Positions 665 to 44,760 of a stretch of DNA of 64,000 bases are shown here, in pieces. Under the pieces are notes generated by a model. The model ran no database searches, was not told the origin of the DNA, and saw only the letters and a list, made by a program, of their open reading frames with translations. Source of the stretch: Dyella sp. (GTDB taxonomy: Bacteria > Pseudomonadota > Gammaproteobacteria > Xanthomonadales > Rhodanobacteraceae). Position 1 is the first letter of the stretch. Every line of letters begins with the position of its first letter. The position numbers were made by a program, and so were the translations under genes. The stretch spans positions 3,707 to 67,706 of the forward strand of contig NZ_DAIOEU010000016.1 in NCBI RefSeq assembly GCF_036746095.1, given 5' to 3'.

Positions 665-2314
665 ATGACGGTCACACGGCGTGATTTTCTGCGTAGTGCC
701 GGCGCCATCGTCGGCGCCTGTGCGCTAGGCGATGCGTGGCGCATGGCGAAGGCCGGCACCGCGCCGATGTCGATGCCCATGCGCACCACCGCTGCGACCT
801 TGGCTGCACCCAAGGTGCCACTGATCAACCCGACCTCGCTTGCGCGATTTGTCGATCCGCTGCCCATCCTGGCCATTGCGCACGCGACGGAACAGCGCGC
901 CGATCCGATGCGTCCGGGACGCACGCTGCCGTATTACCGGATCGAGATGCGAGCATGCAAAGTGCGCCTGCACCGCGATATTCCACTGACACCGTTGTGG
1001 GGTTACCAGGGCCAGTTTCCCGGCCCTACCATCGAAGCACGACGCGATGAGCCGCTGTTGATCGAATGGGTGAATGCGTTACCGCAACAGCATTTCCTCC
1101 CGATTGACCATACCCTGCACGGCGCGGAAAAAGACAAACCCGACGTACGCGCGATCACGCATGTGCACGGCGCGCGCGTGCCGGCCAAGGCGGATGGTTT
1201 TCCGGAAGACTGGTATACGCCCGGCCATGCCGCGCTGTATCGCTATCCCAACGGTCAGGATGCCGCCACGCTGTGGTACCACGATCATGCCATGGGCATT
1301 ACGCGGCTCAACATCTATGCCGGCTTGTTTGGCGCCTACATCGTGCGTGATACGCAAGAACAAGCGCTCAATCTGCCTTGGGGTGATTACGACATTCCGT
1401 TGATGCTCTGCGATCGGCTGGTTGCCCAAGACGGACAGCTCTACTATCCCGTGTCGGATGACGCCGATGCACCGTGGGTCATGCAGTGCCTCGGCAATCT
1501 CGTGCTGTGCAACGGCAAGGTCTTTCCTTATCTGGACGTCGAACCGCGTCGCTATCGGTTTCGCTTGATCAATGTCGCCAACACGAGCTTCTTCGATTTG
1601 TCGCTGTCGCATGATCAAGCCATGCAGCAGATCGCCAGCGATCAAGGCTTGCTGGCGGGCCCGCTGGAACGCATGCGCGTCGAGCTGTATCCCGCCGAGC
1701 GCGCGGACGTGGTGATCGACTTCGCCAGCTTTGCCGGCAAGTCCTTGCAATTGCGGCACGCGTCCCAAGGCATTCTGGAGTTTCGTGTGGGCGCTGCAAG
1801 CCGCCGCGATACATCCACCTTGCCGATGGTGCTGCGTCCGGTAACGCGCATCGATCCGACCACGGCCGTGCACGATCGCATCCTTACGCTCAATGAAAGC
1901 GACGACGCCAACGGCAACGCCATGAAGATGCTGCTCGATGGCAAGCGCTGGTCCGATCCGGTCACCGAGAATCCGCGCCAGAACAGCATCGAAACCTGGA
2001 GTTTCGTCAACCTTACCGGCGATGCGCATCCGATCCACCTGCATCTGGTGCGCTTCCAGGTGATCGATCGACGGCCATTCGATCTGTTCGCGTGGAATGC
2101 GCATCGCAAGCTGGTATTTACCGGGCCACCTATTGCGCCAGAACCGCAAGAACTCGGCTGGAAAGATACGGTACGCGCCGACTCCGGCATGGTCACGCGC
2201 ATCGCCATGCGCTTCGAAGGCGAGCCTGGCCGCTACGTTTGGCATTGCCACCTTCTCGAGCACGAAGACAACGAAATGATGCGGCCGTACGAGGTATTGC
2301 CCGCGCATTCGTAA
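665..2314 (+). CDS. multicopper oxidase (CotA/bilirubin-oxidase-like), TAT-exported
   Basis: Twin-arginine signal 'MTVTRRDFLRSAGAIVGA'. Copper-ligand motifs are present: 'HVHGA', 'WYHDHAMG', 'HPIHLHLV' and 'HCHLLEHEDNEMM'. Confidence 0.9.
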   Translation: MTVTRRDFLRSAGAIVGACALGDAWRMAKAGTAPMSMPMRTTAATLAAPKVPLINPTSLARFVDPLPILAIAHATEQRADPMRPGRTLPYYRIEMRACKVRLHRDIPLTPLWGYQGQFPGPTIEARRDEPLLIEWVNALPQQHFLPIDHTLHGAEKDKPDVRAITHVHGARVPAKADGFPEDWYTPGHAALYRYPNGQDAATLWYHDHAMGITRLNIYAGLFGAYIVRDTQEQALNLPWGDYDIPLMLCDRLVAQDGQLYYPVSDDADAPWVMQCLGNLVLCNGKVFPYLDVEPRRYRFRLINVANTSFFDLSLSHDQAMQQIASDQGLLAGPLERMRVELYPAERADVVIDFASFAGKSLQLRHASQGILEFRVGAASRRDTSTLPMVLRPVTRIDPTTAVHDRILTLNESDDANGNAMKMLLDGKRWSDPVTENPRQNSIETWSFVNLTGDAHPIHLHLVRFQVIDRRPFDLFAWNAHRKLVFTGPPIAPEPQELGWKDTVRADSGMVTRIAMRFEGEPGRYVWHCHLLEHEDNEMMRPYEVLPAHS

Positions 2315-2523
2315 AGGGTGCGTCAATGTGCAGCGCAACCCATCACGTTTGTCGCACCACTGTCATCGCGCCATGACGCCTTGTCGCGTTGCTGCCAACG
2401 TTACGTCACATGCGAGGCGCAGACTTCCGGGCGGTCTGTGGGGGTAAGTCAGATACGCAGACCGTAATCAGGGGGATTACTCGATTGCAGGCGTTCGCGA
2501 GATGCCAGCAGGAGACACCAGCT

Positions 2524-4551
2524 ATGCCCACGAAGTATGGCCGTACCCGGTTCAAGCCCTTTGTGCTTTGCGCGCTCGTCACCAGCCTCGTCGGCGTGGC
2601 GAATGCGCAGAACACCGATCGATCCAATGACGCAACATTCCGCGCCAACGTACCTGCCGCCGCCATCAAGCCCGTAAGCGGCCAACCCGGCGGCGCCATT
2701 ACGCTCTACAACCCGGATGCCGCGGACGCGAGCAGCCGCACCCGCACGCCGATCAAGCATGTGATCCTGCTGATTGGGGAAAACCGCACTTTCGATCACG
2801 TGTTCGCCACCTACACGCCGCCGAAAGGGCAAAGCGTCGAGAACCTGCTATCCGAAGGCGTCGTGAAAGCCGACGGCACGCCCGGCCCTAACGTGGCCAG
2901 GGCGCAGCAGTGGCAGGCGAGCCAGACCGGCGACTATTCGCTCGCGCCCCCGCACACCAGCGCGTATGCCAACCTGCCGGCGATGAACACCGGCGGTGCG
3001 CCGACCCAGGCGTATCTTTCGTCGGTTGCGCAAGCCGAAGCGATCGAACCGGCTTTGCCGGCGAATTACTATCCCTTCCTCGCCGAAGGTGGTACGGGGC
3101 TACCGAACGACGTGCAAGACACGCGCTTCCCCACCACGCTGCCGAATGCGCCGGTCGATATGCACGCCTCGATCAGCTACAACGACTACGCCAACAGTCC
3201 GGTGCACCGCTTCTTCCAGATGTGGCAGCAGCTCGATTGCAATATGAACCATGCGACATGGAAAAACCCAAGCGGTTGCCGCGCGGACCTGTTCCCGTGG
3301 GTGGAAGTGACCATGGGCGCCGGCAACAACGGCAAGACGCAGCCGGCCAATTTCACGGACCAATCCACCGGCGAAGGTTCCACCTCCATGCAGTTCTTGA
3401 ACATGGCGCAGGGTGATGCGCCGTATTTCAAGCAACTGGCCGAGCAATACGCGCTCAGCGACAACTTCCACCAGTCGGTGATGGGCGGCACGGGCGCCAA
3501 CCACATCATGCTGGGTTTCGGCGATCTGATCTATTACGCAGATGCCAACGGCAATCCCGTCGCGCCGCCGTCCAACCAGGTCGAAAACCCGAACTCGCAA
3601 TCGGGTACCAACAACTGGTGGGAGCAGGATGGCTATAGCGGCGGTTCTTACGTGAATTGTGCGGACGACAGCCAGCCCGGCGTCGGCGCCGTGCGCAAGT
3701 ATCTCAAGAGCCTGCCGTATGACGCCTTCCGCCATGGTGATTGCAAGAAAGGTGCGTACTACCTGGTGAACAACTACAACCCCGGCTACCTGGGCGATGG
3801 CACGCCCGCACCGCTGGGCGCCGACCAGTTCACCATTCCGCCGACCCGGCAGCAGAACCTTGGTTTGCTGCTCTCGCGTAAACACGTCAGCTGGAAGTAC
3901 TACGGCGAAGGCTGGGACGGCGGCAAGGAAGACGGCGAAGCCGGCAGCTTCTGCAACATCTGCGATCCGTTCCTGTATTCCACGCAGATCATGACCAACC
4001 CGGCCCTGCGTGCGCACAACCAGGACCTCAACAACCTCTATAGCGACATCCAGAACGGCACCCTGCCGGCCGTAGCCATCGCCAAGCCGGATGGACTGCT
4101 GGACGGCCATCCAGCCTCGTCCAAGCTGGAGCTGTTCGAAGGCTATGCGCAGAAGATCATCGACGCGGTGAAGGCCAATCCGAAGCTATGGGACAACACC
4201 GCCATCATGATCACCTTCGATGAAGGTGGCGGCTACTACGACTCCGGCTACGTGCAGCCGATCGACTTCTTCGGCGACGGCACACGCATTCCGCTGATCG
4301 TGGTGTCGAAGTACTCGCAGGGTGGCCGCGTGGTGCATACGTACGGCGATCACGTGTCTTTCGACAAATTCGTGGAAGCGAACTGGGACCTGGACGAAAC
4401 CATCTCCCATCGCAGCCGCGACAACCTGCCCAACCCGATCTCGCTGCCCAGCAACCCGTATGTGCCGCTCAACGCACCGGCCATCGGCGACCTGATGGAC
4501 ATGTTCAATTTTCATCGCCATTGGGATGGCGACAGTACCGCGCGAAACTGA
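2524..4551 (+). CDS. phosphoesterase family protein (phospholipase C / AcpA acid phosphatase type), secreted
   Basis: The internal ATG at 2524 gives the signal peptide 'MPTKYGRTRFKPFVLCALVTSLVGVANA'. 'IKHVILLIGENRTFDHVFATY' and 'ITFDEGGGYYD' are hallmarks of the phosphoesterase family. Confidence 0.85.
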   Translation: MPTKYGRTRFKPFVLCALVTSLVGVANAQNTDRSNDATFRANVPAAAIKPVSGQPGGAITLYNPDAADASSRTRTPIKHVILLIGENRTFDHVFATYTPPKGQSVENLLSEGVVKADGTPGPNVARAQQWQASQTGDYSLAPPHTSAYANLPAMNTGGAPTQAYLSSVAQAEAIEPALPANYYPFLAEGGTGLPNDVQDTRFPTTLPNAPVDMHASISYNDYANSPVHRFFQMWQQLDCNMNHATWKNPSGCRADLFPWVEVTMGAGNNGKTQPANFTDQSTGEGSTSMQFLNMAQGDAPYFKQLAEQYALSDNFHQSVMGGTGANHIMLGFGDLIYYADANGNPVAPPSNQVENPNSQSGTNNWWEQDGYSGGSYVNCADDSQPGVGAVRKYLKSLPYDAFRHGDCKKGAYYLVNNYNPGYLGDGTPAPLGADQFTIPPTRQQNLGLLLSRKHVSWKYYGEGWDGGKEDGEAGSFCNICDPFLYSTQIMTNPALRAHNQDLNNLYSDIQNGTLPAVAIAKPDGLLDGHPASSKLELFEGYAQKIIDAVKANPKLWDNTAIMITFDEGGGYYDSGYVQPIDFFGDGTRIPLIVVSKYSQGGRVVHTYGDHVSFDKFVEANWDLDETISHRSRDNLPNPISLPSNPYVPLNAPAIGDLMDMFNFHRHWDGDSTARN

Positions 4552-30197: not shown

Positions 30198-30320
30198 GCT
30201 CGTCATTCCGGCGAAGGCCGGAATCCAGTCAAGTACACCGTGCGAAGCACACGCTATTTGGCTTTGAGTGCTTCGCACGTCGTATTCAAACTGGATTCCG
30301 GCCTTCGCCGGAATGACGGC
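30198..30320. repeat. nested-palindrome MITE/REP-like element (about 120 bp) between pgl and edd
   Basis: The outer arms 'cgtcattccggcgaaggccggaatccag' (30201-30228) and 'ctggattccggccttcgccggaatgacg' (30291-30318) flank an inner palindrome 'cgtgcgaagcac...gtgcttcgcacg'. A twin with the same architecture lies at 52079..52197. Confidence 0.85.
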
Positions 30321-32192: not shown

Positions 32193-32216
32193 ACATCGCA
32201 CCATCCCCATGCGGTC

Positions 32217-32293
32217 GTCATTCCCGCGAAAGCGGGAATCCATTGTCGCTTTTGCCCCAGGTCTACATGGATTCCCGCTTTCGCGGGAATGAC
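32217..32293. repeat. inverted pair of REP units between edd and eda
   Basis: 'gtcattcccgcgaaagcgggaatccat' (32217-32243) and 'atggattcccgctttcgcgggaatgac' (32267-32293). Confidence 0.85.
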
Positions 32294-32319
32294 GGCCATA
32301 AGGCGTATTTGGATCATCT

Positions 32320-34904: not shown

Positions 34905-34937
34905 CGTATACGCCGGAGTTGATGCTACCTATGGACC

Positions 34938-35014
34938 GTCATTCCCGCGAAAGCGGGAATCCATTTTCAAGGGTGCATCAGAGCAAAATGGATTCCCGCT
35001 TTCGCGGGAATGAC
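34938..35014. repeat. inverted pair of REP units after the S10 peptidase gene
   Basis: 'gtcattcccgcgaaagcgggaatccatttt' (34938-34967) and 'aaaatggattcccgctttcgcgggaatgac' (34985-35014). Confidence 0.85.
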
Positions 35015-35067
35015 GGCCGCAACGAAATGCATGCTTTCATGGCCTTCTCGATTGCCAGTCGCCGACA

Positions 35068-36496: not shown

Positions 36497-36573
36497 GGCC
36501 GCCAAATCGTAGGTAGGGTTGGCGCAGGGTAACCCAACATGTTCGGGGCGATCCGATAGCAACGCTGCGCTGC

Positions 36574-37017
36574 TTATGGCTCGGCAATTTCGAGCCCGTT
36601 TTCCTCGCACCAGTCACGCAGCGCCTGTCGAGTGGCTTTGTCTTCGTAGTCATTCCAGTGCTCAAGCTGCCCCTTGCGTATCAGCAAGTCCTTGAACCGG
36701 CCATAGGCGCCGCGCTTGCGGAAGAAGTCATAGACCAGCTCGTATGCATCGGGCAAATGTTGCCTGGCAAAGTGGAAAACGAGGTCCCGCCCCAGATCAA
36801 GATCGTTCTTGTGCGGTACGGGCACATAGCGATCAGGATCGTCGATGTCTTCCGGCAGATCTTCGTCCACGCCGAACTCGGCGGTGCCGGACCAATACAC
36901 CTTGCCGGTCTGCCGGGACACATAGGCCTCAGGTTCGGAACCCAGATTACCGCCGCTTACCCACGTGAGTGCGTCGAGCAGGTCGTTTAAATTGACGGGT
37001 ATGCGTTCGGTCGTCAT
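36574..37017 (-). CDS. UPF0158-like hypothetical protein
   Basis: 'NLNDLLDALTWVS...EAYVSRQTGKVYW...DDPDRYVPVP...FARQHLP...GAYGRFKDLL' resembles the UPF0158 family from memory. It marks the start of the low-GC islet. Confidence 0.6.
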   Translation of the reverse strand: MTTERIPVNLNDLLDALTWVSGGNLGSEPEAYVSRQTGKVYWSGTAEFGVDEDLPEDIDDPDRYVPVPHKNDLDLGRDLVFHFARQHLPDAYELVYDFFRKRGAYGRFKDLLIRKGQLEHWNDYEDKATRQALRDWCEENGLEIAEP

Positions 37018-37175
37018 CGTGGAAACGTATTTATTTCACATGAGCGCCGTCAATCATCATTGAATCCGGCAGTATGGGGACTGTTTGTGCCATGAGCGGC
37101 AATTCCTTGAAGAGCGGTTGGCGTTCGCGCCAACAGGTGCTGCATCTTTCCGTCACGCCCTTGTTGAGCGCGTCG

Positions 37176-37473
37176 CTATTTGCGACTTTTCCAGCGGCCA
37201 GGGTGACGAGTTCCGTGGATGACGGCAAAGACAACCGCATCGATCCCATCCACGACAAAATAAATGCAAAAAAGGGAATCGGTTCATTACTGCGCGACGC
37301 GCATTTCTATGTACAACCGGAAAGGCAAGTGGCTCCTCACCAATCCGGTCGAACAGTGATTGGGCCTCATCGAGAAATTCGTGGCCAAGCCCAACGCGTT
37401 GTTGTTCGTACCAAGAAGCTGCATCGGTGAGATCCCGATCCGCCTCATTCCTGAGCCGGACAATATTTTTCAT
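37176..37473 (-). pseudogene. parE: ParE/RelE-family toxin gene interrupted by a 1-nt homopolymer frameshift
   Basis: The N-terminal frame reads 'MKNIVRLRNEADRDLTDAASWYEQQ...AVMNRFPF'. After the T6 run (forward-strand A6 at 37268-37273), dropping one nt continues as 'CIYFVVDGIDAVVFAVIHGTRHPGRWKSRK*' with the stop at 37176-37178. That is a textbook ParE C-terminus and gives a 98-aa protein. Confidence 0.8.
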
Positions 37474-37679
37474 AGCTTCTTGCGTATATCTGCAATGACG
37501 TCGGCGACCGGGCGACCGGAATGACCATCTGCTTCGTAGGCGTCCAAGCGACGATCGAGTTCGGAGCGCTGCTCTGAGGTCAGTGTAAGAGCGTTCTTAT
37601 CAGCCGCAATGCTATCCCACAGGTCTTCGACGAGGAGGATGCGTTCGTTAACGGGTAGCTTCAAAAGATTGATGTTCAT
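37470..37679 (-). CDS. addiction-module antitoxin (TIGR02574-type), partner of ParE
   Basis: 'MNINLLKLPVNERILLVEDLWDSIAAD...LTSEQRSELDRRLDAYEADG'. Its stop overlaps the parE start (ATGA). Confidence 0.8.
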   Translation of the reverse strand: MNINLLKLPVNERILLVEDLWDSIAADKNALTLTSEQRSELDRRLDAYEADGHSGRPVADVIADIRKKL

Positions 37680-37941
37680 GGGTATACAGGATATGCCGAA
37701 GGGTGCCGCGTTCCAATAGTGCATTGCTTCGTTCGAGCAGCGGCAAGAATGCGATGACGTTTTCGGCAGACTCATTTCCCGAATGGCGATGGAGCTTAAG
37801 GGGTATGTGCTTGCCGCTGTCGAACCGCAGAGCCGACCTGTTGGGAAGGAGCATCGTGCAGAGCCTCAACATCTGAGTGAAGTCGCGTCGCCCAAGTGTT
37901 TCCTTAAATGAATTATTAGGTCGCGATCGACTAGTATTCAT
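37648..37941 (-). CDS. hypothetical protein (weak call)
   Basis: An ATG at 37941 overlaps the MazG-like stop by 11 nt. Its 3' end overlaps the antitoxin start by 32 nt. I recognise no motif, and the region is low in GC. Confidence 0.3.
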   Translation of the reverse strand: MNTSRSRPNNSFKETLGRRDFTQMLRLCTMLLPNRSALRFDSGKHIPLKLHRHSGNESAENVIAFLPLLERSNALLERGTLRHILYTHEHQSFEATR

Positions 37942-38281
37942 TGTATTTCTTGGCACTTCCGCGGACACGATCAGCGGGGTATTTGAGTTCATTTGTTTCC
38001 AACTTAACCGATGCGCATTCCAGTGGGTCAAGCGAGAATTTATCTGCGAGGTTTAATAGGTAGAGCTGAACATCCCCGATCTCCTCCTTGAGGCGAGCGA
38101 GCTTATCAGCACTGAGATTTGAGCTCTCTGCCTCGGTCATCCACAGAAATACTTCGAGTATTTCCGCTGCCTCAGTTGCAAGGCCAATGGCTAGGTTCTT
38201 CGGGGAATGGAACTGCGCCCAGTCACGGGCTGCGACGAATGTCCGCAGCCTTTTTTGTAGCTCCGTGACAGCGGAGCTCAT
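37931..38281 (-). CDS. MazG-like nucleotide pyrophosphohydrolase (dCTPase-like all-alpha NTP-PPase)
   Basis: 'LQKRLRTFVAARDWAQFHSPKNLAIGLATEAAEILEVFLW...EEIGDVQLYLLNLADKFSLD' is the characteristic E-x-x-E ... E-x-x-D helix pair. Confidence 0.8.
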   Translation of the reverse strand: MSSAVTELQKRLRTFVAARDWAQFHSPKNLAIGLATEAAEILEVFLWMTEAESSNLSADKLARLKEEIGDVQLYLLNLADKFSLDPLECASVKLETNELKYPADRVRGSAKKYNEY

Positions 38282-38693
38282 GCGATTAACTCCGGCTCAC
38301 GATGTTTGAGAAAGGCGCGGATTTGTGCCTCGTGCTCGACTGAGAAGCGCTTGAAGGTCATGACCGGTGAGTACTCAGTTGCGGAGATTCCAAGCACTTC
38401 TGTCAGATTGAATGGCCGAGCAATACGTCGTGTACCCCGGCATTGCACGAAGTTGCGCCAACGTCCCTCAGTGCCAGGCCAATATTTCTCGGACTCGCCA
38501 GGAACAAGCTTTCGAATTGATTCGAGTGCCATGATGTACTGAATCTGGTGCTCGGTCCTCGCGCAGTCGGCAGATTTTTGCTGACGAGAGCCAACTCACC
38601 GATGTACCAATCAAGTGGTTGGCTACGGAAGGCATGCTTTTCGGTCTTTACGACACTGGGTAACATTGCGCCGGAAGTTTTGAATAAGAACAT
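38278..38693 (-). pseudogene. unknown gene of about 138 aa, split by a 1-nt homopolymer frameshift; a possible toxin/effector of an antitoxin-X-MazG cassette
   Basis: Frame a reads 'MFLFKTSGAMLPSVVKTEKHAFRSQPLDWYIGELALVSK' (ATG at 38693, 4 nt after the antitoxin-like stop). At the A5 run (forward-strand T5 at 38575-38579), adding one A continues as 'KSADCARTEHQIQYIMALESIRKLVPGESEKYWPGTEGRWRNFVQCRG...FLKHREPELIA'. Its stop overlaps the MazG-like start (ATGA). Confidence 0.55.
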
Positions 38694-38695
38694 GG

Positions 38696-38926
38696 TCAAT
38701 CCTTCAGTTGACGAGCGTGAGCCTTGGCTGAGACATCTCTTGCGCTCGTCAGAGCCACTGTTTGGGAGTCGATCTGCTCATTCCGGCGAAGTGCTTCCTG
38801 CATCCATAGCTGCTCGATTTCCGCCGGGGAAAATGATTCGAGGCGATCGATCAGATCAAAGGCCAGTTGCGCTCTTTCCTGGGAGGAAAGGCTGAGTGCT
38901 TCACTTTCGAGAGATTTCAGGTCCAT
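38696..38926 (-). CDS. addiction-module antitoxin-like protein (TIGR02574-type), second copy
   Basis: 'LSLSSQERAQLAFDLIDRLESFSPAEIEQLWMQEALRRNEQIDSQTV' shows the same family signature as 37470..37679. Confidence 0.7.
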   Translation of the reverse strand: MDLKSLESEALSLSSQERAQLAFDLIDRLESFSPAEIEQLWMQEALRRNEQIDSQTVALTSARDVSAKAHARQLKD

Positions 38927-38948
38927 GGGAGTCCTGTAAAGCAGTAGA

Positions 38949-41900
38949 TCAACGCCGTACGTATGTTACATCGCTAGTCCCATCCGGCTCCGGCCGTCGC
39001 AACAAGGCGTTGTACCAACGCCGCTGCTGCGCAAGATCGCCTTCAATCAGCCATTGCGGTTTATTGGCGACCAGCGCGGCGACAGGCATGCCGTCTTCGT
39101 AAAGCACGCGCGTGCCGGCCAATGCAGGCAGGCGATCGCCGGTGAGAACGGTGCCGACCAGGTTCAAGGGATCGCTGCCGCTGAGCGTGACGCGGATCTG
39201 CTCAGGTGGGCGCAGCCGTATGCTGCGCAGGTGGGCGATGGCTTCGGGCAGGGCGAATTGTTCGCCGACCAGTCCTTCCACGAAGCGGCCGCCGCGGATT
39301 TCGCCGCGGGCTTCCAGGCGGTGGTAGACGCGCAACAGTTCGCGCCACGAAGGCAGCCAAGGGGCTTCGCGTTCGAGGAGTTTCCAGAAGATGACGCCGT
39401 AGCGGCGCAGCAGCACGCGGGCGATGTGTTCGACTGGATCGTCGGCGGCGGTGGGCGCTTCACTGCGCGGTGACATTTTTGTTGGAAGCTTGCGCACCAA
39501 CGACCATCGACCGGCATCCTCGATCTCGCTCAAGTTATGCCTGCGCACGCGACGATAGCGGGACGATTCGCGCTTGGCGGCGGGCGTGAGCAATGCACGC
39601 AGGCCGGCAAAGCTGTCGGAGGTAACGCGTCCGGCGGAAACCAGCTCGCCTAGCGCATCCTCAAGCTCCGTGCGCAACAGATGCGCGGCCTCGAGCAGTT
39701 CGTCGAAGAACAAGGCACCGTGTGCGTTCAGCGCATCGGCGACGGCTTGCGCACGCGACGACAGCAACGGTTCCTGTTCCTGATTGCGATCGGCCATGCT
39801 GGTCCAGATCGGCCATTGGCGACGCGGCAACAGCACGATCGGCGTCGCGCGTACCGGGCCGCCGCTGCCGCCACCGCTGCGCAGGCGATTCCAGCCGATG
39901 CGGCCGGCGCGACACAGTTCATCCAGCCAACGGCTGGAGTAGCCCTCGATGCGCGACGCCAGCAACTCGCCTTCCCACGCACCCGCTGCGGCTTCGAAGC
40001 CTTCAAATTGGTGAAGCACGCCACTGAGCGCATCCGGGCCGCTCAGCTTCGTACCCGGTGTGGTGTGCTGCCATTCGAGCAGGAAGCGCATCAGGTCGCG
40101 GCGGCTGACCGGTTCGATTTCCCGTCGCAAGCGGCCGATGGTGTAGCGATGGATGCGTGCGAGCAGATGGCGTTCACACCATTCGGTATCGCTGGCCTCC
40201 GGCGAAAAGTGGCCCTGCATGACGTAGCCTTCCGATTGCAGGCGAATCAGGGCAAGGTCGATGTCGGCGCTTTCCACCTGCATGGATGCGGCAAGGGCGG
40301 CGACGGTGCTGGGGCCCAGGCCGGTGAGGCGGCCGCGCACGAATTCCAGCAAGGCGTCTTCGCGCGTCCAGGTTTGCGCGGCGTATTCGGCGGGCGCGGT
40401 GATGGATGGATGCAATGCGGCGTGTTCATGCACGGCATTCCACATGGCCAGTTTTTCGGCGCAGATCCACACACCCTTTTCCTTCTCCCCTTTGGGGAGA
40501 AGGTGGCCCGAAGGGTCGGATGAGGGGCTGTGCAGAGCGGAAGCTTCCCGCGAGATTCCGCCGTCGCCCTCTCCCCTGTTATTGATCAAAGATCGGGGAG
40601 TTAAGAGCGTCGCACGATGGACCTTGGCAAGCTTGTGCAGCCAATCGAGCCAGCCGTCATGCGCACGCGCTTCTTCTGCCGTGACGAACCCGAGCACATT
40701 CAGCGCCTCGTGCATTTCATCGGCGCTGCGTACATCCGGCCATGCTTCGCTGCGCACCGCAGCAATCGCTTCCGGATCGAGCTTGGCCAGATCGTCCGTA
40801 TCCTCGATGCCGTTCCAATGACGCGTTTGCACTGCGCGCGTGCGGCGTTCTTCCAGCGGCGCGTCGTCAAGGAACGCATACGGCGCGGCGTTGAGCACTT
40901 CGCTGGCGAGCGGGCTGGGCGCGGTGAGATCACGTGCGACCACGGTGATCGCACCCGATTCCATGTTCTTCAAGACATCCAGCAATCCATCCACGTCCAT
41001 CGCTTCGCGCAGACAGTCGTGCAGGGTCTGGTTCACCAGCGGATGATCGGGGATCTGCCGCTCGCCGACGATGTTTTCCAGGCAGGCGACCTGGTCGGGG
41101 AAGACAGTGGCGAGCAGGTCCTCGCTCTTCATGCGCTGCAAAGGCGCAGGCACTTTCTTGCCGCCCGCATAGCGCGGCAGGGCCAGCGAGGTCACCGCAT
41201 TCCAGCGCCAGCGCACCGGGAATAGCGGCGCATCGAGCAGCGCCTGCACCAGCACGTGTTCGGCGGTGTTGCTGTGCAGGTAACGCGCCACTTCGATCAG
41301 CGGAAAACTGTGGCTGGTGGAAAGCGACAGCACGATGGCGTTTTCGGTTGCGGCGGCCTGCAATTCGAAATTGAATTGCCGGCAAAAGCGCTTGCGCAAC
41401 GCCAAGCCCCACGCCTTGTTGATGCGGCTGCCCCAGGGCGTATGGATTACCAGCTGCGTGCCGCCGGATTCATCGAAGAAGCGCTCGAACACCAGCGTGG
41501 ATTGCGTCGGCATCACGCCCAGCGCGGCCTTGGCCTTGGCAAGATATTCCACGATCTGCTGCGCGGCGGATTCGTTCAATCCGAGTACTTCGCGCAACCA
41601 GTCGAAGGCCGCCTGCACGCCGCCGGCATCGATGCGTGCGGCCATTTCTTCGCGCAGGCGCGATACGCCCACCGACAATTCGTTGCTGCGACCCGGGGCT
41701 TCGCCCAGCCAGAACGGAATGCTCGGCGGTGCGCCTTGCGCGTCTTCCACGCGCAAGCGGTCGCGCTCCACGCGAAGGATGCGATAGCTGGTGTTGCCGA
41801 GCTGGAAAATATCGCCAGCCAGGCTTTCGACTGCGAAGTCTTCGTTCACCGTGCCGACGATGGTCGCTTGCGGTTCCAGCACCACCAGGTAATCGGCGGT

Positions 41901-43544
41901 ATCGGGAATGGTTCCGCCCGAGGTGACGGCAGTGAGGCGCGCACCGCGCCGTGCGCGCAGTTCGCGATGCACGGCATCGCGGTGAACGTATGCAGCGCGA
42001 GCGCCGCGCCGTGTGCTGAAGCCGTCGGCCAGCATGCGCACGACGGCATTGAACGTATCGCGGGGCAAGCTGCGATAGGGATAGGCGCGACGCACCAGGT
42101 CGAACAGCGCATCTTCGTCCCATTCCGCGCACGCCACTTCAGCCACGATCTGCTGCGCCAGCACATCCAGCGGTTGCGGCGGCTGCATCAGCGTGTCGAG
42201 TTCCCCACGGCGCACGCAATCGAGCATCGCGGCGCATTCGACCAGGTCATCGCGGCTGGTGGGAAACAGCCGTGCTTTCGGCGTGCCGTTCACCGCGTGG
42301 CCGGAACGGCCCGCACGTTGCAGGAACGCAGCGATGGAGCGTGGCGAAGAAAGCTGGCACACCAGATCCACGTCGCCGATATCGATACCCAGTTCCAGCG
42401 ACGCGGTGGCGACCAGTACTTTCAGTTCACCCCGTTTCAGGCGTTGCTCGGCGTCCAGGCGCTGCTCTTTTGCAAGACTGCCGTGGTGCGCGGCGACGGC
42501 TTCATGGCCGAGGCGTTCGGACAGATGCCGCGCCACGCGTTCGGCCATGCGCCGCGTGTTGACGAACACCAGCGTGGTGCGGTGTTGCTCGACCAGTTGC
42601 GCAAGCTGGTTGTAGACCAGGTCCCACGTGTCGTTGGACATGACCGCTTCCAGCGGCACCGGCGGCACTTCGATGGCGAGATCGCGCTCGCGTGTGTGGC
42701 CGACGTCGATGATGGTGCAGCCTTGCTCTCTTTCAAGCTTTTGCTCCCTCTCCCCTCTGGGGTGAGGGGCGGCTCTTGCGAAAAGATCACTGATAACAGG
42801 CGATGACTCGTTTTGAGTTTCCGGCGAGATTCGCCCCTCGTCCCAGCCCTCTCCCCGGAGCGGAGAGGGCGCAAGGCCTGTGCCCTCCCCCACCAGAAAC
42901 TTCGCCACATCCTCGATCGGCTTCTGCGTCGCCGACAAGCCAATCCGCTGCAACGGCCGCTGGCACAACGCTTCCAATCGCTCGAGCGTCACGGCCAGAT
43001 GCGCACCACGCTTGCTGGCCGCCACCGCGTGGATTTCATCCACGATCACGCTGCGCACGCTTTTGAGCATCTCCCGCCCGGACAGCGAGCCCATCAGCAC
43101 GTACAGGGATTCCGGCGTGGTCACCAGGATGTGCGGCGGCACCTTGCGCATCAGGCTGCGCTCGGCTTGGGGGGTGTCGCCGGTGCGCACGGCGGTGCGG
43201 ATCGGCGCGCCCGGCAGGCCGAGCTTTTCCAGCTCGATGCCGATGCCTTCCAGCGGCGCTTCCAGGTTGATGTGGATATCGTTCGACAATGCCTTCAGCG
43301 GCGAGACGTACACCACGCGTGTTTCGTCCGGCAGCGTGCCGCCGCGCGCCACGCTCTCCTGCACCAGCTGGTCGATGGCGGCAAGAAAGGCGGTCAGCGT
43401 TTTACCCGAACCGGTCGGCGCGGCAACCAGTGTGTGCCGCCCTGCCCTGATCTTTGGCCAGGCGGCAGCCTGCGCGGAGGTGGGCGCCGGGAACGTGTTG
43501 CCGAACCAGGCGGCAACCGCGGGATGGAAGTTCTGCAGAGGCAT
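38949..43544 (-). CDS. lhr: Lhr-like large ATP-dependent DEAD/DEAH-box helicase (about 1531 aa)
   Basis: The start at 43544 gives 'MPLQNFHPAVAAWFGNTFPAPTSAQAAAWPKIRAGRHTLVAAPTGSGKTL'. Motifs 'VIVDEIHA', 'GLSATQKP', 'HHGSLAKEQR' and 'QRAGRSGH', followed by a long Lhr C-terminal extension. The 1854-aa ORF in the track is an upstream run-on across the AraC gene. Confidence 0.9.
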   Translation of the reverse strand: MPLQNFHPAVAAWFGNTFPAPTSAQAAAWPKIRAGRHTLVAAPTGSGKTLTAFLAAIDQLVQESVARGGTLPDETRVVYVSPLKALSNDIHINLEAPLEGIGIELEKLGLPGAPIRTAVRTGDTPQAERSLMRKVPPHILVTTPESLYVLMGSLSGREMLKSVRSVIVDEIHAVAASKRGAHLAVTLERLEALCQRPLQRIGLSATQKPIEDVAKFLVGEGTGLAPSPLRGEGWDEGRISPETQNESSPVISDLFARAAPHPRGEREQKLEREQGCTIIDVGHTRERDLAIEVPPVPLEAVMSNDTWDLVYNQLAQLVEQHRTTLVFVNTRRMAERVARHLSERLGHEAVAAHHGSLAKEQRLDAEQRLKRGELKVLVATASLELGIDIGDVDLVCQLSSPRSIAAFLQRAGRSGHAVNGTPKARLFPTSRDDLVECAAMLDCVRRGELDTLMQPPQPLDVLAQQIVAEVACAEWDEDALFDLVRRAYPYRSLPRDTFNAVVRMLADGFSTRRGARAAYVHRDAVHRELRARRGARLTAVTSGGTIPDTADYLVVLEPQATIVGTVNEDFAVESLAGDIFQLGNTSYRILRVERDRLRVEDAQGAPPSIPFWLGEAPGRSNELSVGVSRLREEMAARIDAGGVQAAFDWLREVLGLNESAAQQIVEYLAKAKAALGVMPTQSTLVFERFFDESGGTQLVIHTPWGSRINKAWGLALRKRFCRQFNFELQAAATENAIVLSLSTSHSFPLIEVARYLHSNTAEHVLVQALLDAPLFPVRWRWNAVTSLALPRYAGGKKVPAPLQRMKSEDLLATVFPDQVACLENIVGERQIPDHPLVNQTLHDCLREAMDVDGLLDVLKNMESGAITVVARDLTAPSPLASEVLNAAPYAFLDDAPLEERRTRAVQTRHWNGIEDTDDLAKLDPEAIAAVRSEAWPDVRSADEMHEALNVLGFVTAEEARAHDGWLDWLHKLAKVHRATLLTPRSLINNRGEGDGGISREASALHSPSSDPSGHLLPKGEKEKGVWICAEKLAMWNAVHEHAALHPSITAPAEYAAQTWTREDALLEFVRGRLTGLGPSTVAALAASMQVESADIDLALIRLQSEGYVMQGHFSPEASDTEWCERHLLARIHRYTIGRLRREIEPVSRRDLMRFLLEWQHTTPGTKLSGPDALSGVLHQFEGFEAAAGAWEGELLASRIEGYSSRWLDELCRAGRIGWNRLRSGGGSGGPVRATPIVLLPRRQWPIWTSMADRNQEQEPLLSSRAQAVADALNAHGALFFDELLEAAHLLRTELEDALGELVSAGRVTSDSFAGLRALLTPAAKRESSRYRRVRRHNLSEIEDAGRWSLVRKLPTKMSPRSEAPTAADDPVEHIARVLLRRYGVIFWKLLEREAPWLPSWRELLRVYHRLEARGEIRGGRFVEGLVGEQFALPEAIAHLRSIRLRPPEQIRVTLSGSDPLNLVGTVLTGDRLPALAGTRVLYEDGMPVAALVANKPQWLIEGDLAQQRRWYNALLRRPEPDGTSDVTYVRR

Positions 43545-43684
43545 GGTAGGTAACCCGTGGTCGCACGGGCGCAAGGCTCGTCGATCATGACATAGGGGTG
43601 ATTGGCCAGCGTAAAAGCTTTCATTCCCCTGCTCCCTGGGCGTCCAAGCATGCTCACTGTTGGCAGTCGCAAGAGATGAGACGC

Positions 43685-44497
43685 CTAGGCCGTTGCGCGC
43701 TGCCCGAAGTACCGCGCCGGCGAGTGGCCAAAGCAGCGGCGGAACATGGCGATGAACGCGCTGGTGCTCGCATAGCCCAGGCCGTCGGCGACTGTCGCGA
43801 CAGGCAGGCCTTCGGCCAATTGCTCCAGCCCCTTGGTGAGGCGCGCCTGCTGGCGCCACTGCGCGAAGCTCAAGGCCGTTTCGGCGCGGAACAGGCGGCT
43901 GAGCGTGCGCGCGGAAAGTCCGGCCCAGGCGGCCCATTCTTCCAGGCTGCGGTTGTCGTGGGGCTGTTCCAGCACGGCCTGGGCGATACGCAGCAGGCGG
44001 CGGTCGATCGGCATCGGCAGATGCAGCGGTTCGAGCGGCGCGGCGCGGATTTCCTCGAGCAGCACGCCCATCACCCGTTCCTGCCGCTCGGTCAGCTCCG
44101 GATTCCAGGTCCAGGAACTGGCGCGATGCACCAGCTCGCGCATCAGCGGATTCACGCCGATCACGCCGGGCCGTTCGGGCAGGCAATGCGCAACCTCGGG
44201 ATGCAGGAACACGCCCCAGCCGGTCAGCGGCCCGTTGATGGTCACCTTGTGCAGCTCGCCCGGCGGCATCCAGCCGGCCCGATGCGGTGGCAATAACCAG
44301 GAGCCGTGCGCGGTATGCATATGTACCAGACCGCTTTCCACGCAGAAGAACTGACCGCGCGCATGACTGTGCCAATCGTATTGCTTGGTTTCCTGGGTGT
44401 ATTCGCTGAAGGCTTCGCCGTCGTCCCAGTAGGCGATCAGGGCGGGGCCATCCAGCCGTTCGATCAGTTCGTAGAGCTCCTGTTTGGTCCGCTGCAT
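43685..44497 (-). CDS. AraC family transcriptional regulator with N-terminal cupin domain
   Basis: Cupin 'HSHARGQFFCVESGLVHMHT'. C-terminal HTH 'LEEWAAWAGLSARTLSRLFRAETALSFAQWRQQARL...GYASTSAFIAMFRRCFGHSPARY'. Confidence 0.85.
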   Translation of the reverse strand: MQRTKQELYELIERLDGPALIAYWDDGEAFSEYTQETKQYDWHSHARGQFFCVESGLVHMHTAHGSWLLPPHRAGWMPPGELHKVTINGPLTGWGVFLHPEVAHCLPERPGVIGVNPLMRELVHRASSWTWNPELTERQERVMGVLLEEIRAAPLEPLHLPMPIDRRLLRIAQAVLEQPHDNRSLEEWAAWAGLSARTLSRLFRAETALSFAQWRQQARLTKGLEQLAEGLPVATVADGLGYASTSAFIAMFRRCFGHSPARYFGQRATA

Positions 44498-44760
44498 GGC
44501 CGAATCTCGACATTATTTGACCAAATAACGTTATCAGCTTGTCACCAGCTTTGCCTAAGCTTCCCCCTGCTGACCGGCCGATGGCGCCGGGCCACCACGC
44601 CGCTGCCGCCGCTCGCGGCTATCTGATGCAAACCCAGGGGGCTGTGCCGATGACTGCGCCAAGCGCGCAGGCCCTGGTTGGGCGCGCGCAAATGTCTGTC
44701 ACGGCACGCCTCGTTCGTCCGTCTATTGAGCGATCCGCGCTGCACTGAGAAGGAAAGGTC

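Follow-up and report, generated by a model that had tools for sequence, protein, structure and literature searches.

A PUA-like and MazG-like gene pair carried as an integron cassette, a candidate sensor and nucleotide hydrolase module, persists as a fossil behind an orphan antitoxin gene in Dyella

In a stretch of 64,000 nucleotides (nt) from Dyella sp. (NCBI RefSeq assembly GCF_036746095.1, contig NZ_DAIOEU010000016.1, positions 3,707 to 67,706; hereafter the window), three small genes lie tightly spaced on the minus strand: an antitoxin-family gene, a frameshifted gene whose repaired product has 138 amino acids (aa) and a predicted PUA-like fold, and a gene for a MazG-like nucleoside triphosphate (NTP) pyrophosphatase. 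The original prediction, made from the letters of the window, described them as a coupled cassette and a possible three-component toxin-antitoxin (TA) or defence module reminiscent of mazE-mazF-mazG. The observation is confirmed, with all of the described minus-strand open reading frames (ORFs) present as placed, and the three-component TA module is refuted. What emerges instead is a two-gene cassette, a rare and uncharacterised variant of a known design principle, of which the window holds a fossil. By analogy with characterised systems, the pair is most likely a conflict module consisting of a sensor and a nucleotide hydrolase, and a candidate anti-phage system. Taken jointly, the locus history and the function proposed here form an explanation that we hold to be moderately probable.

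Results

The 138-aa and MazG-like genes belong together as a conserved unit

Look-ups of encoding contigs combined with one-genome-per-species scans yielded 16 distinct contexts of the 138-aa gene, and a metagenome scan added a further 40 informative loci. A MazG-like gene follows directly downstream in 12 of the 16 contexts and in 29 of the 40 metagenome loci. The distance from stop to start lies between -8 and +11 nt in 12/12 contexts, most commonly as an ATGA overlap, and the same ATGA joins the stop of the 138-aa gene to the MazG-like start in the window, as originally described. Taxa with the pair include Pseudoxanthomonas, Nitrospira, Bacteroidales, Desulfobacteraceae and Marinimicrobia, and PUA-like and MazG-like domains are naturally fused in a protein of 253 aa (P0035). 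Upstream of a MazG-like homologue at 76% identity (L029), a 138-aa gene is present that had not been called. Judged by gene order and spacing, the two genes are a real unit, translationally coupled and conserved across phyla.

To this extent the coupled cassette of the original prediction stands, whereas the antitoxin is not part of the unit. An antitoxin upstream of the pair was found in none of the 15 other distinct contexts, in none of the 40 metagenome loci and nowhere outside the lineage of the window. Nor did the surveyed loci contain a same-strand ORF less than 17 nt upstream of the pair, the few small upstream ORFs being unrelated. A survey of gene neighbourhoods for both partners, as had been proposed with the original prediction, hence links the 138-aa gene to MazG-like genes and, outside the window lineage, in no case to this antitoxin.

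The neighbourhoods of the pair include TA pairs, a reverse transcriptase (RT) and methyltransferases, i.e. contexts that are defence- or mobile-element-like, in agreement with the defence context earlier suspected for the MazG-like gene. No homologue of the 138-aa protein was found among INPHARED phages, PLSDB plasmids or IMG/VR, which gives no support to an origin from phages or plasmids. We note that in one locus (L015, 463-5902) an RVT_1 reverse transcriptase, an N6_N4 methyltransferase, an AAA_5 ATPase and a DUF2201 protein are encoded upstream of the pair, a neighbourhood that, by its predicted domains, is defence-island-like.

The 138-aa gene is genuine and decaying in the window

The ORF of the 138-aa gene (38278..38693, minus strand) spans 416 nt, which is not a multiple of 3, and the frameshift recognised in the original prediction is thereby confirmed. 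The repaired product has full-length homologues of 138 aa, with 33 clusters and a best match of 82% identity (E 1.7e-69), placing the ORF far beyond chance. An intact allele is found on a 297-kb JGI contig (L028; 3300037466 Ga0395898_0000045) with the same order of Lhr, antitoxin, 138-aa and MazG-like genes, and alignment of the window with this allele locates the loss of one T next to 38572 (AAT CTT GCC to AAT CT- GCC). A further intact pair is carried by a cassette in GCA_021838335.1 (JAKCDX010000116.1). The deletion is common to three independent metagenome assemblies (L012-L014), about 99% identical. In addition, three residues with >=90% conservation across the family are replaced in the window allele (T10M, N17T and L82F); the MazG-like proteins of the window and L028 differ by 1 residue. 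On these sequence grounds, the window copy is a decaying pseudogene with a fixed lesion, and only the MazG-like half, whose activity is predicted, can still be active.

Other accounts of the frameshift were rejected. A sequencing error is incompatible with three other assemblies carrying the lesion, with the existence of an intact allele and with the substituted conserved residues, and the same shared lesion, intact L028 allele and substitutions speak against programmed frameshifting or recoding. Repair through an extra A in the A5 run (...SKKSADC...) is wrong, as the intact allele of L028 identifies a lost T (...SKNLADC...).

The 138-aa protein is predicted to adopt a PUA-like fold

The 138-aa protein has no match in Pfam or NCBIfam (both at E<=0.1), nor in PADLOC or PHROGs, and the original characterisation of the middle gene as family-less and not ParE/RelE-like therefore holds. 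The structure prediction that had been suggested for the repaired protein was performed with AlphaFold2 on an alignment of 30 sequences, giving a model with a pLDDT (predicted local distance difference test) of 92.8 and a pTM (predicted template modelling score) of 0.85. In Foldseek comparisons to the PDB, the top matches are to ZmASCH of Zymomonas (5guq/5y6b; E 3e-5 to 3e-4, probability 1.0, TM 0.57-0.62), followed by TRIP4 ASCH, MJECL36, YTH domains, McrB N-terminal domains and the EVE protein PH1033, and viral ASCH/EVE proteins match the model as well. The model thus assigns the protein to the PUA-like superfamily (ASCH/EVE/YTH), with its beta-barrel fold. In one gene cluster, two different PUA-superfamily proteins occur, since 42 nt upstream of the pair there is a gene for a canonical Pfam ASCH-domain protein (L055, 163-726).

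A full hmmsearch with the family profile returned only 164 representative clusters. Among the long members (n=38) there are at least 15 fusions to HNH nuclease domains, one to SRA and HNH, one to a MazG-like domain and one with an N-terminal MazE/AbrB domain. Relatives in which sensor and nuclease domain share a polypeptide are P0038, P0040, P0041, P0132, L022, L041, L058 and L061. A calcineurin-like domain was detected in none of the scanned members of the 164 profile matches. Loci that lack the MazG-like gene are mostly HNH fusions (L041, L061, L058), and in L065 the PUA-like gene adjoins a gene for a NERD-UvrD helicase. The fusions to HNH and to SRA plus HNH match the architecture of modification-dependent restriction enzymes, which argues for a sensor role of the PUA-like domain.

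Several arrangements among the relatives deserve mention in their own right. In L058 (98-1981), a HIT-family nucleotide hydrolase is encoded 17 nt upstream of a PUA-like-HNH_2 fusion, a staphylococcal-nuclease (SNase) homologue follows, and the HIT protein, another nucleotide hydrolase, occupies the place of the MazG-like enzyme. In four loci (L022 at 2158-3244, L069, L070 and L071), a PUA-like-HNH fusion of 252-261 aa directly precedes a MazG-like gene; as read from their domains, these represent a recurrent three-domain version, combining a putative Type IV nuclease with a deoxycytidine triphosphatase (dCTPase)-like enzyme. P0059, a distant member of 222 aa, has its PUA-like domain preceded in the same polypeptide by a MazE/AbrB (PF04014) DNA-binding domain, and is the only TA-flavoured link found.

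The MazG-like protein resembles DCTPP1

The MazG-like gene (37931..38281, minus strand) is intact and encodes 116 aa. Its product scores 41.2 bits against PF12643 (MazG-like; cut-off 27), and the solved structures matched include 4qgp (5.7e-21), RS21-C6 (7.7e-19) and human DCTPP1 (3e-15). The metal-binding motif EXXE(12-28)EXXD is present in the translation as EAAE (37-40) and EIGD (67-70). Together these features identify the protein as a predicted all-alpha NTP pyrophosphatase of the DCTPP1/RS21-C6 type; DCTPP1 enzymes form tetramers. Structures of iMazG, a MazG-superfamily enzyme of Vibrio, have been solved and are available in the PDB; iMazG is not among the PDB sequence matches of the MazG-like protein at E<=1. 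The mazE-mazF-mazG analogy fails on both proteins, given a PUA-like rather than a MazF fold for the middle one and, for the enzyme, membership in PF12643 with only 14.1 bits against the E. coli-type MazG family PF03819 (cut-off 22).

The broader MazG-like family comprises >1,000 clusters. Homologues at 59-64% identity are found after gatA, without a PUA-like gene and in housekeeping contexts, indicating that the enzyme was recruited from a broader house-cleaning family.

The pair travels as an integron cassette

Canonical attC sites (R'' TCTAAC ... R' GTTAGAC) lie on both sides of the pair in L006, where it belongs to an array of co-oriented single-gene cassettes located downstream of an internally deleted intI-like gene. 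The product of this gene (L006 16-309, minus strand; 97 aa) has its N-terminal SAM-like part joined directly to the C-terminal ...TTMIYTHVL...GVRSPLD. Sites of the attC type flank the pair as one cassette in L001-6 and in the independent arrays of L033 and L039. With a covariance model (R1) built from the attC sites of the one L006 array, they score 65-77 bits in L001, 70 and 58 bits in L033, and 52 and 31 bits in L039. L034 has a site of 62 bits upstream and a weak one of 14.9 bits downstream, and in L053 a site of 24 bits lies just downstream of the MazG-like gene. Flanking attC-like inverted repeats with a GTTCGGC core were seen by eye in L020 and L021. The distribution of these predicted sites indicates that the pair travels as a single integron gene cassette, with several relatives carrying it in this form. 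For phage defence, integron cassettes are already known as carriers (bioRxiv 10.1101/2024.07.02.601719).

In the window itself, only remnants of this organisation are left. Scanning the whole window with model R1 revealed no functional attC anywhere, on which ground we reject the window as an active integron, and no intI was detected in the window with the 97-aa IntI fragment as query. At the 3' end of the cassette, a decayed attC relic (37863..37921, minus strand) with homology to the L006 attC reaches only 7.4 bits (E 2.1) and has lost its hairpin, with a DNA fold energy of -5.0 kcal/mol versus -15.3 kcal/mol for the intact attC of L006. Its attC ancestry is taken from DNA homology only, i.e. 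from the blastn homology to L006 that runs to 37863. The 5' attC is deleted.

The integron setting bears on a further possibility, a two-gene addiction module that stabilises cassette arrays, in which one protein is toxic and the other neutralises it. The genes are small and translationally coupled, and they occur in integron arrays, where TA cassettes are frequent. Yet either gene is lost alone, as the PUA-like gene is a pseudogene next to a retained MazG-like gene in the window and in L054, the MazG-like gene is truncated next to an intact PUA-like gene in L037, and PUA-like genes stand alone in L016, L062-64 and L066. TA-type models fit poorly for this reason, and as the HNH fusions moreover point to a sensor role, we regard an addiction module as quite improbable.

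The antitoxin was joined to the pair by an insertion

The first gene of the window trio (38696..38926, minus strand; 76 aa) encodes, by Pfam match and homologue alignment, an orphan antitoxin of PF09720 (Unstab_antitox; 37.6 bits, cut-off 23.3). It is therefore an antitoxin-family gene as originally stated, although the more specific TIGR02574 assignment falls short in the NCBIfam scan (20.2 bits, cut-off 31.9). The spacer between its stop and the start of the 138-aa gene measures 2 nt (TGA-CC-ATG) and not the 4 nt given originally.

Homologous loci reveal where this arrangement comes from. Dyella nitratireducens (L026) and a metagenomic relative (L027) have the order Lhr-antitoxin(-ParE) and later a Glyoxalase_6 gene. 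The ParE toxin of L027 comprises 97 aa (PF05016, 23.1 bits), with a gene overlap of 4 nt. By blastn, the window is collinear with L026 from 39599 to 38715 (L026 2333-3212) and again from 36498 to 36111 (L026 3606-3993), from which it follows that window 36499-38714 is a 2.2-kb insertion replacing ParE. The block has a GC content of ~0.50-0.58, compared to ~0.62-0.67 in the flanks. The Dyella homology stops at 38715, and blastn homology to the integron cassette of L006 starts exactly at this position, 22 nt upstream of the ATG.

At this left junction (~38714/38715) lies the 5' leader of the cassette (38694..38715, minus strand; CTCGTCAACTGAAGGATTGACC), with the ribosome-binding site AAGGA; the leader CTCGYCAACTGAAGGATTGAYC is conserved in the unrelated loci L007 and L017. 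The closest homologues of the antitoxin have 74 aa and all end in ...SAKAHALLR, while those of the window and L028 end in ...SAKAHARQLKD. Codons 1-71 are of the resident Dyella type; the 5 codons that follow, together with the stop, come from the inserted leader. Since the antitoxin ORF crosses the breakpoint into the leader, the stop 2 nt before the next ATG is a junction accident. The apparent translational coupling of antitoxin and 138-aa gene is, on this alignment evidence, an accident of the insertion.

The history of the locus, well supported by these comparisons, accordingly reads as follows. As in Dyella, the ancestor carried Lhr, then an Unstab_antitox-ParE pair and then the glyoxalase gene. 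The ParE gene was replaced by 2.2 kb of DNA derived from integron cassettes, with the left breakpoint after antitoxin codon 71, in the 5' leader of the cassette. The inserted block is now decaying, with the attC hairpin lost, a second ParE frameshifted and the PUA-like gene lacking one T. In L028 (10001-10231), conserved or invariant positions of the orphan antitoxin are substituted (L3P, L6P, L11F and A22T), which suggests relaxed selection.

The three-component proposal can now be weighed. It would have the PF09720 protein as antitoxin, the 138-aa protein as toxin and MazG as modulator, analogous to mazE-mazF-mazG. The tight spacing of the three genes in the window, L012-14 and L028 accords with it, as does the fusion of a MazE/AbrB-type domain to P0059's PUA-like domain. 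An antitoxin is nevertheless upstream of the pair in 0/~55 other contexts, the native partner of this antitoxin is ParE, and the junction lies within its 3' end. The middle protein has a predicted PUA-like fold and no known toxin fold, and the MazG is not of the E. coli type. In L028, where the PUA-like gene is intact, the antitoxin is mutated at conserved positions, which would be unexpected for a needed antidote. We consider a three-component module hardly credible.

Further features of the insert and its surroundings

The inserted block (36499..38714, minus strand), defined by Dyella synteny, contains the PUA-like pseudogene and the MazG-like gene with their attC relic, as well as a second TA pair and a UPF0158 gene. 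Beyond the pair, the remaining insert (second antitoxin, frameshifted ParE-like partner and UPF0158 gene) also has a cassette-like appearance and is decaying. The second antitoxin (37470..37682, minus strand; 70 aa) matches TIGR02574 with 76 bits and PF09720 with 60 bits. Its ParE-like partner (37176..37473, minus strand) is frameshifted in a T run near 37270; PF05016 covers the N-terminal half only, and the C-terminal half, IYFVVDGIDAVVFAVIHGTRHPGRWKSRK followed by a stop, lies in another frame. The gene is called in the same split form in L028. The UPF0158 family gene (36574..37017, minus strand; family match) is the final gene of the block.

A fourth small ORF, which the original prediction had placed over the MazG stop, does exist mechanically (37648..38031, TTG start). 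It has no family match in Pfam or NCBIfam, is not conserved alongside the pair in other loci and covers the attC relic together with the following gene's leader; we regard it as spurious and not as a gene. A promoter and terminator scan of 37400-39200 gave 0 sigma-70 promoter-like sites and 1 terminator-like site at chance level.

On the other side, the antitoxin is flanked by a gene for an Lhr-type DEAD-box helicase (38949..44513, minus strand, mechanical ORF coordinates), its conserved left neighbour in Dyella. The mechanical ORF has 1854 aa, and gene calls in close relatives give 1531-1533 aa. Translation probably begins >300 codons downstream of 44513 and leaves out the first ~300 codons. 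Elsewhere in the window, a palindromic element resembling repetitive extragenic palindromes (REP) or miniature inverted-repeat transposable elements (MITE), CGTCATTCCCGCGAAAGCGGGAATCCA ... inverted copy, is present in 3 intergenic copies (30201-30318, 32213-32297 and 34936-35016) with arms that are 97-100% complementary.

Discussion

Based on the fold and fusions of the PUA-like protein, the type of its partner and comparisons to characterised systems, we propose the following for intact members of the family. The PUA-like protein would most likely bind a modified nucleobase, in DNA or as a mononucleotide, a property that we infer from the fold and the HNH/SRA fusions only. The MazG-like enzyme would most likely hydrolyse deoxycytidine triphosphate (dCTP) or 5-modified dCTP, both of which are substrates of DCTPP1 (PMC7162842). 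The most likely joint effect would be a defence against phages, or other invaders, with modified bases, the matching deoxynucleoside triphosphate (dNTP) pool being depleted or cleansed. In a more specific and tentative form of this proposal, the PUA-like protein and the DCTPP1-type MazG would constitute a minimal two-gene anti-phage system spreading as one integron cassette, in which the PUA-like subunit senses a modified base, possibly a cytosine derivative, and switches on, or lends specificity to, a pyrophosphatase by which the corresponding pool of (modified) dCTP is destroyed, i.e. a relative of PUA-Cal-HAD without HAD.

Several points count against a sensor and hydrolase function in defence. 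Some ASCH proteins are enzymes and not readers, such as the amidohydrolase YqfB and ZmASCH. The family profile of the 138-aa protein gives only noise against PDB sequences, with no solved PUA-like protein found. Searches of PADLOC and PHROGs returned no match to the 138-aa protein, and no HAD partner is present among the called neighbours of any locus, unlike in published PUA-MazG variants. From the gatA-linked homologues, the enzyme may simply be a house-cleaning dCTPase. Finally, the broken PUA-like copy of the window permits no functional statement for this organism.

Alternatively, the two proteins may be a nucleotide house-cleaning pair outside defence, which is the main rival explanation. 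The MazG-like enzyme would remove modified or excess dCTP, and the PUA-like protein would bind or process modified nucleotides or nucleic-acid fragments, keeping salvaged modified bases out of the host genome and, where a PUA-HNH nuclease is present, preventing self-restriction. In its favour, the enzyme is of the DCTPP1 type, and eukaryotic DCTPP1 is a pool-sanitising enzyme with dCTP and 5-modified dCTP as substrates (PMC7162842); close MazG-like relatives reside in housekeeping contexts, and the MazG-like gene of the window remains intact after the loss of the PUA-like gene. The triples of PUA-HNH and MazG (L022, L069-71) are likewise compatible with self-protection, and a MazG-type house-cleaning enzyme on an integron cassette has a precedent (Robinson et al. 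2007, as cited in PMC3856429). On the other hand, the family is rare, patchy across phyla and cassette-borne, as is typical of conflict genes and not of core metabolism, the other partners of the PUA-like domain are nucleases (HNH, SNase, NERD-UvrD), and the neighbourhoods contain TA pairs, an RT and methyltransferases. We judge a house-cleaning pair unlikely on balance and continue to favour the conflict module.

If the pair is a defence module, it would add a compact sensor-effector design, a modified-base reader with a DCTPP1-like dNTPase, to the phage defences based on nucleotide depletion, and would supply a concrete two-gene example for the recently proposed storage of defence systems in integron cassettes. 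The sensor domain represents an unnamed PUA-like family reused with HNH, and defining its ligand would annotate the putative Type IV enzymes, too. For annotation, the locus carries a warning: tight spacing and an antitoxin-family neighbour can originate from an insertion junction and do not by themselves indicate a TA operon. The value lies in the family and not in the window copy, since the module here is a fossil.

Comparison with known systems

The likeness to E. coli mazE-mazF-mazG is confined to gene order, with a MazG-superfamily pyrophosphatase downstream of small genes in close succession, the first of which is of an antitoxin family. The enzyme here belongs to PF12643 as opposed to PF03819, no MazF-like toxin is present, and the PF09720 antitoxin, which derives from a separate parDE-like pair, shows no conservation with the unit. 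iMazG of Vibrio (Robinson et al. 2007), as far as described where it is cited in PMC3856429, is also a MazG-superfamily house-cleaning enzyme on an integron cassette, and differs in being a single-gene cassette of a different MazG subtype. Alignment with DCTPP1/RS21-C6 (PDB 2a3q, 6sqw, 7mu5; archaeal 4qgp) covers the whole MazG-like protein (E 6e-21 to 8e-19), which retains EXXE...EXXD; unlike these enzymes, it is bacterial, cassette-borne and translationally coupled to a PUA-like partner, with its dCTPase role being predicted.

The nearest experimentally characterised system is PUA-Cal-HAD, in which a PUA-like domain binds m6-dAMP and triggers dNTP depletion, a defence function shown by experiment (bioRxiv 10.64898/2026.01.15.699771). 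As in the pair described here, a PUA-like sensor is coupled to a phosphoesterase directed at (d)NTPs, here through adjacency to, and fusion with, a MazG-like protein. The PUA family of PUA-Cal-HAD is likewise fused elsewhere to HNH and other effectors, with MazG-like as an alternative effector, and its authors report rare variants in which MazG-like replaces calcineurin, always with a HAD partner (same source). No HAD phosphatase is seen in the neighbourhoods here, the MazG-like protein is of the DCTPP1 type, and the 138-aa protein is a separate polypeptide, whereas the PUA domain of ECOR28 spans residues 6-179 of a protein in which it is fused to the effector. The two PUA families were compared at the level of published description.

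Beyond nucleotide depletion, a PUA-superfamily sensor joined to HNH is an established architecture of modification-dependent restriction, e.g. in the EVE-HNH enzymes TspA15I and VcaM4I (PMC6765204, PMC7897488). Relatives of the 138-aa protein have the same architecture (domain plus HNH; domain plus SRA plus HNH) and belong to the same predicted fold superfamily, although sequence similarity to the solved EVE-HNH enzymes is not detectable and the best structural match is ASCH, not EVE. In contrast to the Type IV enzymes, the window-type protein is the 138-aa sensor domain alone, without a nuclease, and its predicted partner is a dNTP pyrophosphatase. Using the same sensor domain, a minimal two-gene system of this kind would also offer an alternative to Type IV restriction that works without a nuclease.

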